12,535 bases of DNA from a virus (Duplodnaviria > Heunggongvirae > Uroviricota > Caudoviricetes): the IMG/VR virus record IMGVR_UViG_2563366903_000018; one strand, 5' to 3'. A program made the translations under genes and the position numbers. Under the pieces are notes generated by a model, which saw nothing but the letters and a program-made list of their open reading frames with translations, did not search any database and was not told the DNA's origin. This document shows, in pieces, positions 2,765 to 9,915 of the stretch (its first letter is position 1; the number at the start of each line of letters is the position of its first letter).

Positions 2765-2898
2765 CGGTTGACGATCTGGTGGCAGATATCGCCACCATTT
2801 TTCACTGGCCGCCATCCGTTACTGACGTTATGCCGCTGACCGAAGTGCTGGAATGGCGGTATAAAGCGATTCAGAGAAGCGGGGCCAACGATGAGTGA
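2462..2898 (+). CDS. E+E': gpE+E' frameshift fusion protein (E frame 2462..2725, then -1 frame re-reading 2725 through stop at 2896..2898)
   Basis: Manual translation of the -1 frame from 2725 gives VEEVGACRFTDSLTVDDLVADIATIFHWPPSVTDVMPLTEVLEWRYKAIQRSGANDE, ending at TGA 2896..2898, which overlaps the T start codon at 2891. This is the conserved G/GT-like chaperone frameshift arrangement known for P2 E/E'. Confidence 0.65.
2719..2725 (+). promoter_or_regulatory. Programmed -1 ribosomal frameshift slippery site T_TTT_TTG (E to E')
   Basis: Heptamer TTTTTTG lies in the zero frame of E as T TTT TTG (codons Phe-Leu at 2720..2725). The -1 frame is open from here to a stop at 2896..2898. Confidence 0.7.
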
Positions 2899-3204
2899 TA
2901 ACAACCTGCGTCTGCAGGTCATTCTTAATGCGGTTGACAAGCTCACCCGCCCATTTCGATCTGCGCAGGCCAGTTCAAGAGAACTGGCTGCTGCTGTCAA
3001 AAAATCCCGCGATGCAATAAAGCAGCTTGATCAGGCCGGGAGCAGTCTGGACAGCTTCCGAAAGCTGCAGGCAGAAAATCAGAAATTAGGCGACAGGCTG
3101 AACTATGCCCGCCAGCGTGCAAATTTGCTCAGTCAGGAACTGGGAGCGATGGGGCCGCCTTCGCAACGTCAGGTTGTTGCTCTGGGCCGTCAACGGCTGG
3201 CTGT
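2891..3204 (+). CDS. T: Tail tape measure protein gpT, exon 1 (5' part; predicted 5' splice site after 3204)
   Basis: ORF starts MSDNNLRLQVILNAVDKL directly after E'. The reading frame runs into a stop at 3224..3226 only 7 codons after a GTGTG motif at 3205. The tape measure frame resumes about 1.8 kb downstream in the same frame. Confidence 0.55.
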
Positions 3205-3715
3205 GTGTGTCACGAAGGAGAACTGATAGCGGCAATATGAAAATTGCAGCATAAGTTATCCATGCTCTGAGGTGGGTGGAGGTGGGCCCTCCGGTCAGGG
3301 TTTGCAGGAACACTGACCAAACGACCCGGTGCTGCTTCATTCTAAGGAATGTAGTGGTGAGCGACTCGGGAAAAGGCAGAGATCTACTGTCACGTGGGGT
3401 TCGGGAAGCTGAACGAAAGTAAACTGTCCGATGAAGCATCGAAATCTTAGATGATGTCAAAATGGGGCCGTACAGCCGTCCTCTGATAAGCGCAGAAGAC
3501 ACCTGCTTACTGACTGCGCGGCATCCGGTGTTAAGGCAGCAGGATCCCGGGCCAGACCATCTCAGGGAACGTGAGAACCTGTTTCCGGCACGTATCGGGA
3601 AACAGGGGCGGACCCATTCGTAGTAGTGATGAAAGATCTGTAATGGGTCTGGAGCGAAGGGATGGGGATCACATTCATTGCAAAAGACACAACCCATAAG
3701 GGGATGATGTAACTG

Positions 3716-4948
3716 ATGCAACGAAAATCATTCGAAATACCAAAAGCACTGGTCTGGGCATCATATCTGGATGTGCGTCGCAACAAGGGAGCCCCCGGAT
3801 GCGACGGACAGACTTTGAAAATGTTCGACCAGCAACGTGATGGCAATCTATACAAGATCTGGAACCGGCTATGTTCGGGAACATGGTTTCCGCCACCTGT
3901 GCTGGAAAAACGGATCCCGAAGCCGAATGGCAAGGAGCGCATTCTGGGGATCCCAACAGTATCCGATCGAATTGCTCAGGGAGCGATAAAACTTTTTATG
4001 GAAGAAAAGCTTGACCCGATTTTCCATGCTGATTCTTATGGTTACCGACCAGGCAAATCAGCTCATGACGCTCTGAAACAATGTGCCATCCGGTGCTGGC
4101 GTTATAGCTGGATACTGGAAGTGGACATCAGTGCGTTTTTCGACCATGTGAGACATGATCTGGTGCTCAAAGCACTGGAACACCACGGGATGCCTAAATG
4201 GGTCATCCTGTACTGTCGACGCTGGATGGAAGCACCAATGCAGAGTTGTGAAAATGGAGAATTAATAACCCGAACACGAGGCACTCCGCAGGGCGGGGTC
4301 ATTAGTCCGCTACTTGCTAACTTGTTCCTTCACTATGCATTTGATTTGTGGATGGAAAGAGAATATCGGGGGGTACCGTTTGAGAGGTACGCTGATGATA
4401 TTGTAGTACATTGTTCACGAATGAGTGATGCAACAAGGCTGAAGAACAGGTTATCGGAGCGCTTCTCGGAAGTCGGGCTGGTCCTGAATGCAGGGAAAAC
4501 GAATATCGCCTACATTGACACGTTTAAAAGGAGAAACGTCGCAACGAGTTTCACCTTTCTCGGATATGACTTCAAAGTGCGTACGCTGAAGAATTTCAAA
4601 GGCGAACTGTACCGAAAATGCATGCCGGGTGCGTCAAATGCAGCAATGCGCAAAATAACAGAAACAATCAAGAAGTGGCGTATACATCGCTCAACAGCTG
4701 AGAGTTTGCTGGATTTTGCGAGGCGCTACAATGCGATAGTGAGAGGCTGGATCGAGTACTACGGAAAGTTCTGGTCCAGAAATTTCAACTATCGACTGTG
4801 GAGTGCAATGCAGTCACGTCTGCTCAAGTGGATGCAGTCTAAATACAGACTTTCGAACCGGAGGGCTCAGCGAAAGCTGACGCTGGTAAGGAAGGAGTAT
4901 CCGAAGCTATTTGTCCACTGGTATTTACTACGTGCATCGAATGAGTGA
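3716..4948 (+). CDS. Group II intron-encoded reverse transcriptase/maturase (En-minus type)
   Basis: 410-aa ORF with RT motifs: IPKPNGKERILGIPTVSDR (RT1/2), YGYRPGKSAHDAL, LEVDISAFFDHVRHD (RT3), GTPQGGVISPLLANLFLH (RT4), YADDIVV (RT5 catalytic), FLGYDF (RT7), and maturase domain X RGWIEYYG. No Cys/His-rich HNH endonuclease region after domain X. RBS-like aagggga about 11 nt upstream of the ATG. Confidence 0.9.
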   Translation: MQRKSFEIPKALVWASYLDVRRNKGAPGCDGQTLKMFDQQRDGNLYKIWNRLCSGTWFPPPVLEKRIPKPNGKERILGIPTVSDRIAQGAIKLFMEEKLDPIFHADSYGYRPGKSAHDALKQCAIRCWRYSWILEVDISAFFDHVRHDLVLKALEHHGMPKWVILYCRRWMEAPMQSCENGELITRTRGTPQGGVISPLLANLFLHYAFDLWMEREYRGVPFERYADDIVVHCSRMSDATRLKNRLSERFSEVGLVLNAGKTNIAYIDTFKRRNVATSFTFLGYDFKVRTLKNFKGELYRKCMPGASNAAMRKITETIKKWRIHRSTAESLLDFARRYNAIVRGWIEYYGKFWSRNFNYRLWSAMQSRLLKWMQSKYRLSNRRAQRKLTLVRKEYPKLFVHWYLLRASNE

Positions 4949-4952
4949 TCAA

Positions 4953-5028
4953 GAGCCGTATGACGCGAGAGTGTCACGTACGGTTCCGTGAGCAGCCGGG
5001 GAGTGAAATTCTCTCCGGCTGACTCGAC
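4953..5028 (+). ncRNA. Group II intron ribozyme domains V and VI (catalytic hairpin plus branch-point hairpin)
   Basis: Domain V GAGCCGUAUGACGCGAGAGUGUCACGUACGGUUC (4953..4986): 10-bp lower stem, AGC catalytic triad at 4954..4956, 2-nt CA bulge on the 3' strand, 4-bp upper stem, GAGA (GNRA) tetraloop. Domain VI: 11-bp stem 4993..5003 with 5011..5021, bulged A at 5022, short basal helix, intron ending ...GAC at 5028. Confidence 0.75.
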
Positions 5029-7792
5029 TCAGCGCCTGGAAGAACGCCAGAAAAAGCTGCAGCAGCAGACGGCGCTTGTGCGTGCTGAACTGTACCGGGC
5101 GGGAATTTCTGCGAAAGACGATGCGGGAGCAACTGCCCGTTTAGCCCGTGAAACATCACGTTATAACCAGGAACTTTCGAAACAGGAGGCGCGGCTGAAG
5201 CGACTGGGGGAAGCTCAGCGCAGGATGAATGCAGCGCGTGCCAGTTATGCCCGTTCGCTGGAGGTGCGTGATCGTATTGCAGGTGCCGGAGCCACCACCA
5301 CGGCTGCAGGGCTGGCAATGGGTGCGCCAGTGATGGCGGCAGTAAAAAGCTATACCAGCATGGAAGATGCCATGAAAGGTGTGGCAAAGCAGGTCAATGG
5401 TCTGCGTGACGATAATGGCAACCGCACTGCACGTTTTTATGAAATGCAGGATGCCATCAAGGCTGCCAGCGAACAGTTGCCGATGGAAAACGGTGCGGTG
5501 GACTTCGCTGCACTGGTTGAAGGTGGTGCGCGCATGAACGTCGCAAACCCTGACGACAGCTGGGAAGATCAGAAACGTGACCTGCTGGCCTTCGCCAGTA
5601 CGGCAGCAAAGGCGGCAACAGCCTTTGAGCTGCCAGCGGATGAACTGTCAGAAAGTCTGGGGAAAATCGCCCAGCTCTACAAAATCCCCACCCGCAATAT
5701 TGAACAGCTCGGTGATGCGCTGAACTATCTGGATGATAACGCCATGTCGAAAGGGGCAGACATCATTGATGTGATGCAACGTCTGGGCGGTGTGGCTGAC
5801 CGTCTGGATTATCGTAAAGCGGCGGCGCTGGGTTCCACCTTCCTGACACTGGGCGCTGCGCCAGAGGTTGCAGCCAGTGCAGCAAACGCGATGGTGCGTG
5901 AATTGTCCATTGCCACCATGCAAAGCAAGAGTTTCTTTGAAGGGATGAATCTGCTGAAACTCAATCCTGAAGTGATTGAAAAGCAGATGACGAAGGATGC
6001 GATGGGAACCATCCAGCGCGTGCTGGAGAAGGTAAACGCGCTGCCGCAGGACAAGCGCCTGTCTGCCATGACTATGTTGTTTGGTAAAGAGTTTGGCGAT
6101 GACGCGGCGAAACTGGCAAACAACCTGCCGGAACTGCAGCGTCAGTTAAAACTGACAGCGGGCAATGATGCGCTTGGCTCCATGCAGAAAGAATCCGACA
6201 TTAACAAGGATTCACTTTCTGCGCAGTGGTTGCTGGTCAAAACCGGAGCGCAGAACACCTTCAGCAGCCTGGGCGAAACGCTGCGCCAGCCGCTGATGGA
6301 TATTCTGTACACGGTGAAAAGCGTCACGGGGGCGTTGCGTCGCTGGGTGGAAGCTAACCCGGAACTGACAGGCACACTGATGAAAGCATCGGCTGTTGTG
6401 GCTGCGGTTACCGTCGGCCTCGGCACCTTAGCGGTGGCGCTGGCTGCAGTGCTGGGGCCGCTGGCAGTGATCCGTCTGGGATTCTCTGTGTTGGGTATCA
6501 AAACGTTATCTTCCGTTACGGCAGCAGTAACTCGAACCAGCAGCGCGTTGTCCTGGCTGGCTGGCGCACCACTGGCACTGCTGCGACGCGGGCTTGCTTC
6601 ATCGGGCAACGCCGCAGGTTTACTTACTGCGCCGTTGTCGTCTTTGCGCCGCACGGCATCACTGACGGGAAATGTCCTGAAAACTGTAGCAGGTGCGCCG
6701 GTTGCACTTTTGCGGTCTGGATTATCCGGTTTACGTGCTGTTGCTGTGATGTTTATGAATCCTCTGGCGGTACTGCGCGGTGGACTGGCCGCCGCAGGCA
6801 CGGTGCTGCGAGTACTGGCATCTGGTCCACTGGCGATGCTGCGCGTTGCCCTGTATGCCATATCTGGTCTGTTAGGTGCTCTGCTCAGTCCGATAGGTCT
6901 TGTGGTTACTGCACTGGCGGGCGTGGCGCTGGTTGTCTGGAAATACTGGCAACCCATCACCGCATTTCTCGGTGGCGTGGTGGAAGGATTCAAAGCGGCG
7001 GCAGGTCCCATCAGTGCAGCGTTCGAACCGCTTAAGCCCGTGTTCCAGTGGATTGGCGACAAAGTGCAGGCGCTGTGGGGCTGGTTTACTGATCTGCTGA
7101 CGCCCGTTAAGTCGACCTCTGCCGAACTGCAGAGCGCAGCGGCAATGGGGCGGCGATTCGGGGAGGCACTGGCGGAAGGGCTGAATATGGTCATGCATCC
7201 GCTGGACTCCCTGAAATCCGGAGTTTCCTGGTTGCTGGAGAAGCTCGGCATTGTCAGTAAAGAGGCCGCAAAGGCAAAACTGCCGGAAAGCGTGACGCGT
7301 CAGCAACCTGCGACGGTGAATGCAGACGGTAAAGTGATGATGCCATCGGGTGGTTTTCCATCATGGGGATATGGCTTTGCGGGGATGTATGACAGCGGCG
7401 GGTATATCCCGCGCGGGCAGTTTGGCATCGTCGGTGAAAACGGGCCGGAAATTGTTAACGGCCCGGCAAATGTGACCAGCCGGAGAAATACAGCTGCACT
7501 GGCTGCCGTTGTTGCCGGAATGATGGGCGTTGCTGCCGCGCCAGCAGAGCTTCCACCGTTGCACCCCTTGGCACTTCCCGCGAAAGGTGGAGAAGCAATT
7601 GTGAGTCGCGCAGCCACTGTGCCGCTCGTTCAACGGATTGAGGCACCGACGCAGATCATCATTCAGACGCAGCCAGGACAAAGTGCGCAGGATATTGCGC
7701 GGGAGGTGGCACGCCAACTTGATGAACGTGAACGCAGGCTGAAGGCAAAAGCCAGGAGTAACTACAGCGATCAGGGGGGATACGACGCATGA
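5029..7792 (+). CDS. T: Tail tape measure protein gpT, exon 2 (predicted 3' splice site before 5029; stop at 7790..7792)
   Basis: 934-codon open frame (the ORF track starts it at an internal GTG at 4988, inside the intron). Ala/Gly/Leu-rich with a repeat-bearing central region and a C-terminal region typical of tape measure proteins. Same frame as exon 1; predicted junction codon gt|t gives ...ALGRQRLAV-QRLEERQKKLQQQ.... Stop overlaps the U start (ATGA). Confidence 0.6.
6566..6940 (+). repeat. Tandem degenerate repeats of about 20-22 aa within the tape measure protein (PLAxLRxGL-type units)
   Basis: The translation shows consecutive units: APLALLRRGLASSGNAAGLLT / APLSSLRRTASLTGNVLKTVAG / APVALLRSGLSGLRAVAVMFMN / PLAVLRGGLAAAGTVLRVLASG / PLAMLRVALYAISGLLGALLS / PIGLVVTALAGVALVV. 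Confidence 0.6.
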
Positions 7793-8274: not shown

Positions 8275-9371
8275 ATTTCAGCTCTGAACTGCTTAACAAA
8301 GGCAACAAAACTCCGGCATTCAGCATCAGTATTGAAGGCAGGGATATCACTACTGTGCTGGACAACCGCCTGATGGGGCTTACGCTGACGGATAACCGGG
8401 GCTTTGAAGCGGACCAGCTTGATCTGGAGCTGGACGACGCCGATGGAAAAATCGTGCTGCCGCGCCGTGGTGCGGTCATTACGCTGGCGCTGGGCTGGAA
8501 GGGGCAGCCGCTTTTCCCGAAAGGGGCATTCACGGTGGACGAGATTGAACACACTGGCGCACCGGACCGCCTGACTATCCGGGCGCGAAGTGCTGATTTT
8601 CGTGAAACACTGAATACCCGCCGTGAAAAGTCGTGGCACAAGACCACCGTTGGGGAAGTGGTGAAGGAAATAGCTGCGCGGCACAAACTGAAGATGGCAT
8701 TGGGTAAAGACCTGTCAGATAAACCCGTGGAACATATAGATCAGACCAATGAGAGTGACGGCAGTTTTCTGATGCGGCTGGCGCGCCAGTACGGTGCTAT
8801 TGCGTCGGTGAAAAATGGCAATCTGTTATTCATCCGACAGGGGCAGGGTAAAAGCGCCAGTGGTAAACCACTACCGGTTATCACTATCACACGTAAGGAC
8901 GGCGACAGTCACCGCTTTACCCTGGCAGATCGCGGAGCTTACACGGGCGTAATTGCCAGCTGGTTGCATACCCGCGAACCCGCGAAGAAAGAAAGCACCG
9001 CGGTGAAGCGTAAGCGCAGGACTAAGAAGCAGAAGAAAGAGCCGGAAACGAAGCAGGGCGATTATCTGGTGGGTACGGATGAAAACGTGCTGGTACTTAA
9101 TCGCACCTATGCTAATCGGAGTAACGCCGAACGGGCAGCGAAAATGCAGTGGGAACGCCTGCAACGCGGCGTTGCGTCATTCTCGCTACAACTGGCGGAA
9201 GGGCGGGCAGATCTCTACACGGAAATGCCAGTGAAAGTCAGTGGCTTTAAACAGCCGATAGATGATGCGGAATGGACCATTACGACTCTGACGCATACCG
9301 TCAGCCCCGATAACGGTTTTACAACCAGTCTGGAGCTTGAAGTGAGGATTGATGATTTCGAAATGGAATGA
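8271..9371 (+). CDS. D: Tail protein gpD homolog (late control gene D product)
   Basis: 366-aa ORF with a GTG start overlapping the U stop (GTGA); position before ogr and length match P2 gpD (about 387 aa). Confidence 0.85.
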   Translation: MNFSSELLNKGNKTPAFSISIEGRDITTVLDNRLMGLTLTDNRGFEADQLDLELDDADGKIVLPRRGAVITLALGWKGQPLFPKGAFTVDEIEHTGAPDRLTIRARSADFRETLNTRREKSWHKTTVGEVVKEIAARHKLKMALGKDLSDKPVEHIDQTNESDGSFLMRLARQYGAIASVKNGNLLFIRQGQGKSASGKPLPVITITRKDGDSHRFTLADRGAYTGVIASWLHTREPAKKESTAVKRKRRTKKQKKEPETKQGDYLVGTDENVLVLNRTYANRSNAERAAKMQWERLQRGVASFSLQLAEGRADLYTEMPVKVSGFKQPIDDAEWTITTLTHTVSPDNGFTTSLELEVRIDDFEME

Positions 9372-9397
9372 TTCTTCGCAATGGAGAACTTTTAAGT

Positions 9398-9427
9398 TTG
9401 CAAAATGGAATAATGCGGTATCATTAT
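9398..9427 (+). promoter_or_regulatory. Candidate sigma70 promoter for ogr (-35 TTGCAA 9398..9403, 18-bp spacer, -10 CATTAT 9422..9427)
   Basis: Hexamers read directly from the sequence upstream of ogr; RBS-like ggggaga precedes the ATG at 9462. Confidence 0.35.
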
Positions 9428-9461
9428 TGTGAATTTAGCAAAAATGGGGAGAACTCGAAAA

Positions 9462-9680
9462 ATGATGATTTGCCCACTGTGTGGAAGTGCCGCCCATACT
9501 CGCAGCAGTTTTCAGGTATCTTCATTGACCAAAGAGCGTTACAACCAGTGCCAGAACATTAACTGCAGCCATACTTTTGTTACCCATGAAACTTTTGTTC
9601 GTTCGATTGCAACGCCAAAAGAGTCAAATCCGGTTCAGCCACATCCAATGAAATCAGGACAGGTGGCGCTCTCTCTTTGA
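9462..9680 (+). CDS. ogr: Late gene transcriptional activator Ogr (zinc-finger protein)
   Basis: The ORF track starts it at 9429, but the ATG at 9462 has the better RBS and gives a 72-aa protein MMICPLCGSAAHTRSS...YNQCQNINCSHTF with the CxxC...CxxxxC zinc-binding pattern and the length of P2 Ogr. It is the last phage gene before host DNA, as expected for the right end of a P2 prophage. Confidence 0.85.
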   Translation: MMICPLCGSAAHTRSSFQVSSLTKERYNQCQNINCSHTFVTHETFVRSIATPKESNPVQPHPMKSGQVALSL

Positions 9681-9750: not shown

Positions 9751-9793
9751 TTCAGGCAACAAAAAACCCATCAACCTTGAACCGAAATGGCGG
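9751..9793 (-). terminator. Rho-independent terminator for ybjL (minus strand)
   Basis: Perfect 10-bp inverted repeat CCCATCAACC (9757..9766) / GGTTGATGGG (9784..9793) with a 17-nt loop. On the minus strand it is followed by a U-tract (plus-strand AAAAAA at 9751..9756). It lies about 120-165 nt downstream of the ybjL stop. Confidence 0.6.
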
Positions 9794-9915
9794 GGTTGAT
9801 GGGCTCCACAAAATGGGGACATCAAAGAAAAGCAGTGGCACTAATTAAGACTGATGCCCTGCGGAAAAGTTCTGCGGTTGTGCAAAAAAATTTCATTTTC
9901 AGGGCAACTTCAGTT

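Follow-up and report, generated by a model that had tools for sequence, protein, structure and literature searches.

A full-length, apparently intact copy of the group II intron E.c.I3 in the tape-measure gene of a P2-like Escherichia coli prophage

E.c.I3 is an 1824-nt group II intron described from PAI I of E. coli 536/ED1a and, as truncated copies, from Shigella virulence plasmids. It is classed as bacterial class D (PMC3522654 Table S2), and its copies, in publications and in databases, sit in IS679/IS66-family transposase genes (PMC3522654). The class D prototype, RmInt1 of Sinorhizobium meliloti, shares with it an IIB-type ribozyme and a protein with reverse transcriptase and maturase domains but without an endonuclease domain; RmInt1 uses EBS1, EBS2, and a one-nucleotide EBS3, has an insertion sequence as its natural target, and favors the lagging-strand template (PMC4075523). 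It differs from E.c.I3 in sequence and target, and its EBS3/IBS3 pair is G-C (PMC4075523), whereas the tentative pair in the copy described here would be A-U. Group II introns may also retrotranspose ectopically, which as a general pattern needs only IBS motifs, sometimes imperfect (PMC3522654). Group I introns of Bacillus cereus-group prophages (PMC2504315) are likewise self-splicing introns in a tape-measure gene, although of another intron class and mechanism and in a Gram-positive host. Judging mostly from titles and the openings of abstracts, no paper was found that reports a tape-measure gene interrupted by a group II intron.

The window, that is, the whole 12,535-nt stretch of viral DNA analyzed here, carries such an insertion (Table 1). 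The intron is 98.0% identical over 1824/1824 nt to NC_008253 4007952-4009775 of E. coli 536, which is listed as E.c.I3-2b (PMC3522654 Table S3), and thus lies above the naming threshold for E.c.I3, which is >90% nucleotide identity with the reference copy across the whole element (PMC3522654 Table S2). The class D assignment is that of the same Table S2; the rhizobial relatives of the intron-encoded protein (44-49% identity) are consistent with this class, and the 410-aa protein lacks an endonuclease domain, as class D requires. Two plasmid copies (H1 and H2, on pSCU-106-1 and E02 p2) that lie at other sites are 100% identical to the intron, which argues for recent mobility, and E.c.I3 copies elsewhere start and end at the same nucleotides as the window copy. 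On sequence comparison, 3205..5028 is a full-length, apparently intact copy of E.c.I3, which differs from the known copies only in its location, a phage structural gene instead of an IS679/IS66-family transposase gene. The element is already catalogued, and the insertion is otherwise ordinary, with no new kind of biology. In our main reading, to which we give a probability of roughly 0.9, an intact mobile E.c.I3 lies in the sense orientation in gene T, splices at 3205/5028 by means of EBS1 and A5022, and arrived ectopically.

Cutting out 3205..5028 restored an uninterrupted E. coli prophage tape-measure gene at 100% identity and in a single piece. When the joined exons (300 + 300 nt) were compared by BLAST with uninterrupted tape-measure genes, hundreds of genes matched, again at 100% and in one piece; the exon flanks are also contiguous in phage records 500465-1 and KP12, and without the 1824 nt, the window can be aligned colinearly to E. 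coli chromosomes across 10,711 nt. Among the boundary shifts compared, shift 0 was the sole one yielding the joined sequence of the empty allele. Moreover, the end of the Rfam D5-D6 model coincides exactly with 5028, and the termini, 5' GUGUG and 3' ...GAC (5026-5028), are GUGYG/AY as for group II introns. The intron boundaries are therefore exact, and the 5' end at 3205 and 3' end at 5028 proposed in an earlier note on this DNA are confirmed by the identity of the empty sites. The joined frame reads ...ALGRQRLAV-QRLEERQKKLQQQ..., and the 1025-aa product has 0 mismatches against the annotated 'phage tail tape measure protein' of a colinear locus (L005), so the claim that the junction is in frame and interrupts a P2-type T also holds. 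That locus is annotated with sheath, tube, E, E', T, U, D, ogr in this order, so that T, coding for a long tail-length protein, follows the chaperone genes E/E+E' and precedes U and D, as gpT does in P2-like tail clusters; the host gene is the T (tape-measure) gene of a P2-like prophage adjoining rybB/ybjL in E. coli. The same note had offered the intron length, 1824 = 3 x 608, as support for the boundaries. Its arithmetic and coordinates are correct, but the multiple of 3 is a fixed trait of the element, every full-length copy being 1824 nt, and it can serve as a boundary check only because the exons share one frame in window coordinates. The coordinates of GGCTGT (3199-3204), GTGTG (3205-3209), ACAGCC (3472-3477), and A5022 were rechecked; reverse-complementing 3199-3204 gives exactly ACAGCC.

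Table 1. Features of the intron-bearing tape-measure gene T in the window
Feature	Position	Strand	Basis and remarks
Exon 1, P2-type tape-measure gene T	2891..3204	+	Codons 1-104 and first two bases of Val105; ORF list, colinearity with L005
IBS1	3198..3204	+	GGCUGU (-6..-1), six Watson-Crick pairs with EBS1; U3198 (-7) could add U.G with G3478
Group II intron E.c.I3 (bacterial class D, IIB-type RNA)	3205..5028	+	1824 nt, sense orientation of T
5' splice-site consensus GUGUG (GUGYG)	3205..3209	+	Sequence; start conserved among relatives
Domain I sub-structure, Rfam RF01999 (group-II-D1D4-2)	3278..3394	+	93.4 bits against gathering score 36, E = 1.9e-18
EBS2-homologous loop (GAAAUCUUAGAUGA)	3441..3454	+	Family scan; exon -13..-8 covaries best here, z = 6.4
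ID3 hairpin	3464..3483	+	Pairs 3464-3483, 3465-3482, 3466-3481, 3467-3480, 3469-3478; 3468/3479 is a C/U mismatch here
EBS1 (ACAGCC)	3472..3477	+	Loop-exon complementarity and covariation across relatives
Candidate EBS3 (A)	3494	+	Would pair with IBS3 = U5029
Domain II hairpin, short	3578..3606	+	MFE fold; compensatory changes relative to Pseudomonas relatives
Domain III	3609..3651	+	MFE fold; conserved in alignment of relatives
Intron-encoded protein, domain IV	3716..4948	+	410 aa; reverse transcriptase and maturase (X) domains, without endonuclease domain
Domain V	4953..4986	+	Catalytic hairpin, AGC triad, GAGA loop; Rfam RF00029 57.1 bits (gathering score 40); fold z = -7.6
Domain VI	4989..5026	+	Single bulged branch-point A at 5022; intron end ...CUCGAC (3' AY)
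Exon 2 of T	5029..7792	+	First base T5029 = IBS3; ORF list, empty-site match, joined-protein identity
Ligated-exon junction predicted for T mRNA (slash, junction)	...CGGCTGGCTGT/TCAGCGCCTGG...	+	Short form ...GGCTGT/TCAGCG...

The closing stem of domain I and the ID3 hairpin covary among relatives, in keeping with a conserved domain-I architecture, and the compensation in domain II is seen as CCUGUUUCC with GGAAACAGG in the window and CCUAUCCUC with GGGGAUAGG in the Pseudomonas relatives. The intron-encoded protein matches Pfam RVT_1 (residues 67-285, 2.4e-41) and GIIM (residues 311-385, 1.5e-14), with no further Pfam match, and its closest solved structure is the GsI-IIC RT (2e-44). In the fold of 4951-5028, A5022 is the only bulge of domain VI, and since 4 bp and 2 nt lie 3' of it, it is the 7th nucleotide from the 3' end; the arrangement is the same in 60 relatives whose 3' ends were found by a loosened pattern. 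The single bulged A predicted at this position thus reappears in the domain VI fold, and as modeled, domains V and VI with the bulged A5022 are canonical.

The earlier note had paired EBS1 at 3472-3477 with the last six exon nucleotides, while warning that a 6-mer match alone is not significant. The warning was apt, as the window contains 9 copies of ACAGCC where 7.6 are expected, and the pairing itself was borne out by family covariation with the 5' exon. The homologous loop is complementary at 6/6 positions to its own exon -6..-1 in 43/56 distinct relatives, and over all 56 the mean complementarity is 5.61, compared to 4.10 +/- 0.10 with permuted exons. In an unbiased scan of domain I, the EBS1 loop was the sole region covarying with the exon (z = 17.2); overall, permutation and scan give a z of about 15-17. 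One relative (L013), for example, pairs exon GGCTAT with loop GTAGCC. A comparative fold placed 3472-3477 where an EBS1 belongs, inside the terminal loop, 8 nt long (3470-3477, GUACAGCC), that caps the ID3 hairpin. The RNAalifold consensus of 36 relatives showed double (compensatory) changes in 7/7 pairs of this hairpin, and 92.1% of its cells are paired, versus 67.9 +/- 1.9 when shuffled and at most 67.9% when the partners were slid. A single-sequence MFE fold of 3205-3720 drew part of ACAGCC into a long-range helix, and the comparative fold was preferred. Since the empty sites, the Rfam D5-D6 and domain-I matches, and the covariation over 56 relatives are independent lines, we regard the splice boundaries and EBS1 as settled. 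Empty alleles and family covariation thus allowed the 5' and 3' splice sites, EBS1, and the branch A, all predicted from sequence alone, to be checked to the nucleotide.

A search for an IBS2-EBS2 pair, also proposed in the earlier note, came out negative at the T site: exon -8..-14 forms no convincing EBS2 helix with the 3441-3454 loop, and the only helix of at least 4 bp joins exon -17..-13 to stem nucleotides. A convincing helix over -8..-14 is likewise absent from the canonical IS66 sites, where the pairing is weak; EBS2-IBS2 is clear in the rhizobial relatives (e.g., AUGAA with TTCAT) but not in E.c.I3. The missing IBS2 fits an ectopic insertion and has no bearing on the boundaries. As for the third pairing, of all domain-I columns, that of 3494 shares the most mutual information with the first nucleotide of the 3' exon, and it is pairable with +1 in 48/50 relatives (G-C, 28; A-U, 13; G.U, 7). 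The +1 nucleotide is T at every E.c.I3 site examined. We tentatively designate A3494 as EBS3, on a single alignment column in which the phylogenetic background is high.

Splicing of the T intron is inferred from these features as follows. Once the late tail operon has been transcribed, the ribozyme would fold, with its own maturase assisting; the 2'-OH of A5022 would attack the 3204/3205 bond, positioned by IBS1-EBS1; and the freed exon 1 would attack 5028/5029, positioned by IBS3 (U5029) and probably also by A3494. The exons would then be ligated as GT/T (Val105) and the lariat released. It is unlikely that, with the boundaries right, no useful splicing takes place here and the insertion is a disruptive mutation in a defective or decaying prophage. 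Unspliced read-through would reach a stop at 3226, leaving a tape-measure protein of 105 residues extended by 6 read-through codons; yet T is otherwise intact, as are the tail genes on either side, and these sequences show about 99.5% identity with the prophages of other strains. With no evident EBS2-IBS2 pairing here and a weak one at IS66 sites, splicing or mobility may be inefficient, and an alternative register overlooked in the earlier note, ACGGCTG (3193-3199) against CAGCCGT (3473-3479), 7/7 complementary but out of register with the junction, might reduce splicing efficiency further; on the other hand, no flaw is seen in domain V, domain VI, IBS1, or IBS3, and copies at other sites have an RNA 100% identical to this one. 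The allele is also rare, as the T insertion was found in 0/5,426 complete E. coli genomes, 0/50,697 phage records, and 0/72,556 plasmids, and the literature searched yielded no experiment on E.c.I3 splicing at any site. RefSeq flags identical ltrA copies as pseudogenes ('missing N-terminus'), but this flag is contradicted by the family alignment, in which the matches to 80 relatives begin at residue 1-4 and run to about 402-409; measured against these, the open reading frame is full length, and the YADD at residue 225 is intact. We favor an intron that splices.

The usual target of E.c.I3 is an RKNWLF-coding stretch of IS66-family transposase genes, ...GGAAAAACTGGCTGT/TC... (sites L001 and L003), at both of which, as at T, TGGCTGT lies directly 5' of the intron. 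The T site has only CTGGCTGT/TC (-8..+2), a 10-nt core, in common with this target. Judged by its sequence, the T insertion is ectopic, with IBS1 and IBS3 kept and the distal target absent, and a rare natural ectopic site is thereby documented for E.c.I3, which elsewhere keeps to IS66-family transposase genes. Another candidate, L002, was rejected as an independent non-IS66 site because its 5' flank codes for RKNWLF and is a diverged IS66-type target. The critical target positions of RmInt1 are T-15 and G+4. Both are present at the T site and absent from E.c.I3's own IS66 sites, and we treat their presence as coincidence.

The same T exon 1-intron junction occurs in three records: the window, an IMG/VR contig (L086), and a metagenome contig (L088). 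This recurrence, together with a 10-nt core identical to that of the homing site, would be expected if T were a genuine second homing site that is hit repeatedly. Such a site is very improbable, as the three records are 99.8-99.9% identical near the intron, which fits one event inherited with the prophage; the window and L086 differ mostly >2.5 kb from the intron, within the first 611 nt; and an identical empty site is present in about 360 genomes and occupied in 0. L088 has a foreign 3' flank, supports the 5' junction only, and is probably a repeat-induced chimera. A single chance event remains our preferred account of the T insertion.

It is hardly credible, and refuted by the empty-site comparison, that the intron starts at 3203 or 3207 within the GU repeat, or that EBS1 is CAGCCGU (3473-3479) paired with 3193-3199: GTGTG does occur at 3203 as well and the alternative complementarity is complete, but shifts of +/-2 fail to reproduce the empty allele, copies elsewhere share the same end nucleotides, the family register pairing with -6..-1 is the homolog of 3472-3477, and G3478 and U3479 belong to the stem of the hairpin.

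Gene order and strands of the window are those of K-12 at 0.888 Mb, a region that, from the positions of oriC and ter, we take to belong to the clockwise replichore. In this replichore, the T sense strand would be the lagging-strand template, the one that RmInt1 favors (PMC4075523). An endonuclease-less class D intron would prefer this template because nascent lagging-strand DNA can be used as a primer. The combination of IBS1 and IBS3 kept, distal target lost, and a lagging-strand template is the pattern expected for endonuclease-independent retrotransposition, and we propose that the E.c.I3 copy reached T by ectopic reverse splicing. What the T insertion shares with described ectopic group II retrotransposition is a non-cognate site at which IBS1 and the first nucleotide of the 3' exon are retained but the distal target is not; the difference is that here the route, like the replication-strand argument, is drawn from the family and the shape of the site and not from this copy.

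A bolder proposal, which we consider improbable, is that E.c.I3 splices from the late tail transcript in such a way that tape-measure protein and the yield of tails and phage depend on the maturase, with the prophage serving as a new vehicle. Were this so, nature would offer an example of a phage structural gene in which a class D group II intron is domesticated or on which it hitch-hikes, and an intron lacking an endonuclease and restricted to IS targets would gain in the P2-like prophage a new means of moving between hosts. Finally, annotation pipelines would label T a split pseudogene and the intron open reading frame a pseudogene; both labels are probably wrong.

The ORFs flanking the proposed intron (2891..3226 and 4988..7792) share one frame, and therefore only lengths divisible by three are possible for a true intron separating them. 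The earlier note placed an in-frame intron of 1824 nt at 3205..5028, and we recovered both this length and the features from which it argued: GGCTGT at 3199-3204, GTGTG at 3205-3209, an A at 5022, GAC ending at 5028, and ACAGCC at 3472-3477 as the exact reverse complement of the six terminal exon bases. The joined exons (300 nt up to 3204 plus 300 nt from 5029) matched E. coli 'phage tail tape measure protein' genes at 100% identity in a single BLAST piece, and about 360 records were at least 99% identical to this query. Moreover, the window minus the 1824 nt was colinear with E. coli chromosomes across 10,711 nt, and the flanks were contiguous in the phage records 500465-1 and KP12. Among shifts from -6 to +6, only shift 0 reproduced the empty allele, although the 5' end carries a GU repeat. 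Over its 1025 aa, the joined protein agreed at every residue with the tape-measure protein annotated in L005, an uninterrupted locus; there, in a P2-like prophage, the gene has E/E' on one side and U, D, and ogr on the other. Altogether, the empty-allele matches, the end of the Rfam hit, the sole permissible shift, and the identical joined protein show that the junction GT/T (Val105) is exact, and the empty-site comparison bears out both predicted ends.

Features of the intron and its surroundings in the window
Feature	Coordinates	Strand	Details
Group II domain-I motif (RF01999)	3278-3394		Rfam, 93 bits
Hairpin terminal loop	3470-3477		GUACAGCC
Intron ORF	3716-4948		410 aa; RVT_1 and GIIM domains, none other
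D5-D6 model (RF00029)	4951-5028		Rfam, 57 bits; end exactly at 5028
Domain V	4953-4986		folded together with domain VI, z = -7.6
Domain VI	4989-5026		sole bulge A5022; 4 bp and 2 nt on 3' side of A5022
ogr	9368-9562		
RybB sRNA gene, full length	9758-9836	-	105 bits

The caution attached to the 6-mer proposed as EBS1, the intron partner of exon site IBS1, was justified: the match alone is not significant, with 9 copies of ACAGCC in the window versus 7.6 expected. We used 80 loci encoding relatives (44-96% protein identity), whose 5' parts were aligned to an HMM from close relatives with the 5' ends set by the GUGYG motif. The counterpart of 3464-3483 in the alignment folds into a hairpin of 7 bp, and each of these pairs shows double compensatory changes; 92% of the hairpin cells were paired, compared to 68 ± 2% after columns were shuffled and no more than 68% with partners slid. 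The loop 6-mer was fully complementary to its own exon (-6..-1) in 43 of 56 distinct intron/exon combinations, and loop-exon pairs averaged 5.61, compared to 4.10 ± 0.10 when exons were permuted among introns (maximum 4.45 in 2000 permutations). A scan of domain I in 14-nt steps picked the EBS1 loop alone (z = 17.2; next unrelated region, z ~3.5). In the close relative L013, exon GGCTAT and loop GTAGCC represent a compensatory change. Thus, because the hairpin covaries and its loop matches the exon across the family, comparative analysis identifies 3472-3477, in the terminal loop of the hairpin, as EBS1; the predicted distance of about 270 nt into domain I holds as well. The end of exon 1 (3193-3204) is itself an overlapping repeat, GGCTGGCTGT. 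In a second register, ACGGCTG (3193-3199) is complementary 7/7 to CAGCCGT (3473-3479), and ACGGCT is also complementary to GGCCGT (3466-3471); such out-of-register pairings could compete with IBS1-EBS1.

For EBS2 of the family, the domain I scan pointed to the loop that corresponds to 3441-3454 (z = 6.4), and EBS2 pairs were clear in rhizobial and other relatives (GCGUAG/CTACGC and AUGAA/TTCAT). An IBS2/EBS2 pair, which the earlier note proposed to look for, was not found here: no convincing IBS2 lies at -8..-14 of the T site or of the usual sites. When 60 intron 3' ends were located, the domain-I column homologous to A3494 had the highest mutual information with the first 3'-exon nucleotide, with which it can pair in 48/50 relatives. 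Since the phylogenetic background is high, A3494 is a tentative candidate for EBS3, with U5029 as its partner. In the fold of domains V and VI, the predicted branch point A5022 emerged as the only bulge of domain VI.

Within the set of complete E. coli genomes, 173 records match the intron sequence, and 57 records have copies spanning at least 80% of it; start and end nucleotides are identical in every full-length copy among those listed. It is 100% identical to two plasmid copies and 98.0% identical to the E. coli 536 copy (NC_008253 4007952-4009775), coordinates that Table S3 of PMC3522654 gives for E.c.I3-2b; Table S2 of the same paper places E.c.I3 in class D. By sequence, the element is the known intron E.c.I3. 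Its ORF retains an intact YADD and is judged complete because 80 relatives align from residue 1-4 through about 402-409. RefSeq labels identical copies N-terminally truncated pseudogenes; at three E.c.I3 loci (L001, L002, and L003), PGAP gives the ORF pseudogene status ('missing N-terminus') and places an antisense 'hypothetical protein, frameshifted' within domain I. Given the complete ORF in the family alignment, both annotations look like artefacts.

In E. coli, full-length copies interrupt transposase genes of the IS66 family at ...GGAAAAACTGGCTGT/TC... (slash, insertion point), which codes for an RKNWLF motif and agrees with the published IS679 target (PMC3522654); the L002 site is a diverged form of this target. 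In the plasmid search, Shigella virulence-plasmid copies lacked the first 36-37 nt, as published (PMC3522654). The T site has only CTGGCTGT/TC (-8..+2) in common with the usual target. This 10-mer occurs once in the intron-less window, the shorter GGCTGTT five times, and no other site is occupied. The T insertion was absent from 5,426 complete E. coli genomes, 50,697 phage records, and 72,556 plasmids. The same 5' junction was present in one IMG/VR contig (L086) and one metagenome contig (L088), with flanks 99.3-99.9% identical, which fits a single insertion event inherited with the prophage. L088 (ERZ773208 NODE-10297) carries T exon 1 and the intron at 99.9% identity followed by an unrelated 3' flank, TCGTCGCCTTCG..., and is probably a chimera; the foreign flank reflects either a repeat-induced assembly chimera or a further E.c.I3 copy elsewhere in the sample.

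The copy would have entered T by ectopic reverse splicing, with EBS1 and EBS3 as guides, and maturase-assisted branching at A5022 would drive its splicing. The main rival explanation is that the copy splices inefficiently and merely inactivates T, and translation of unspliced T does end at 3226. As to splicing, none of the RNA elements required for the two transesterifications is missing or damaged, the T site matches at IBS1 and IBS3, and excision of 3205..5028 in sequence restores T. For the proposed reverse splicing, gene order and strands in the window are those of K-12 at 0.888 Mb, which, from the oriC and ter positions, we take to lie in the clockwise replichore; with such placement, the T sense strand would be the lagging-strand template. 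This insertion strand is the one favoured by RmInt1, an endonuclease-less class D intron (PMC4075523).

Ectopic insertion relying on IBS motifs only is a known kind of event (PMC3522654), and prophage tape-measure genes with group I introns have been described (PMC2504315). A literature search, mostly of titles and abstract openings, returned no group II intron inside a tape-measure gene; in the one match checked, the intron sits between regulatory genes. Since the element and the kind of event are known and no such case was found, the location in T adds a minor new detail, and the remainder is ordinary. The initial observation is confirmed and its interpretation supported, for an element already known.

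Among the relatives, distant class D introns at six loci (L034, L049, L059, L066, L018, and L035) are inserted after GCTAYGCNGAYGAC/T, the YADD-coding sequence of another reverse transcriptase gene, and their EBS1 loops (AGUCGU) match this target; as read from these sites, they home into reverse transcriptase genes. The 3' flanks of two other relatives, L041 and L084, hold a second intron copy (GTGTGTCACGAACGC... and GTGTGCTGCAGAGGCACG...) in tandem with a 1-nt spacer. Tandem insertions of RmInt1 have been reported and explained by pairing between EBS3 and the first G of the intron (PMC4075523).

The RybB gene lies ~200 nt past the last prophage gene, and thus the P2-like prophage abuts the rybB 3' end. 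Because K-12 has rcdA-rybB-ybjL without a prophage, attachment probably occurs at the rybB terminator or within it. Between the window and L086, 17 of 22 differences fall in the first 611 nt (recombinase/invertase gene, 1-567), whereas the tail genes adjoining the intron are nearly identical, a distribution suggesting that the invertase end underwent local recombination or is mosaic.
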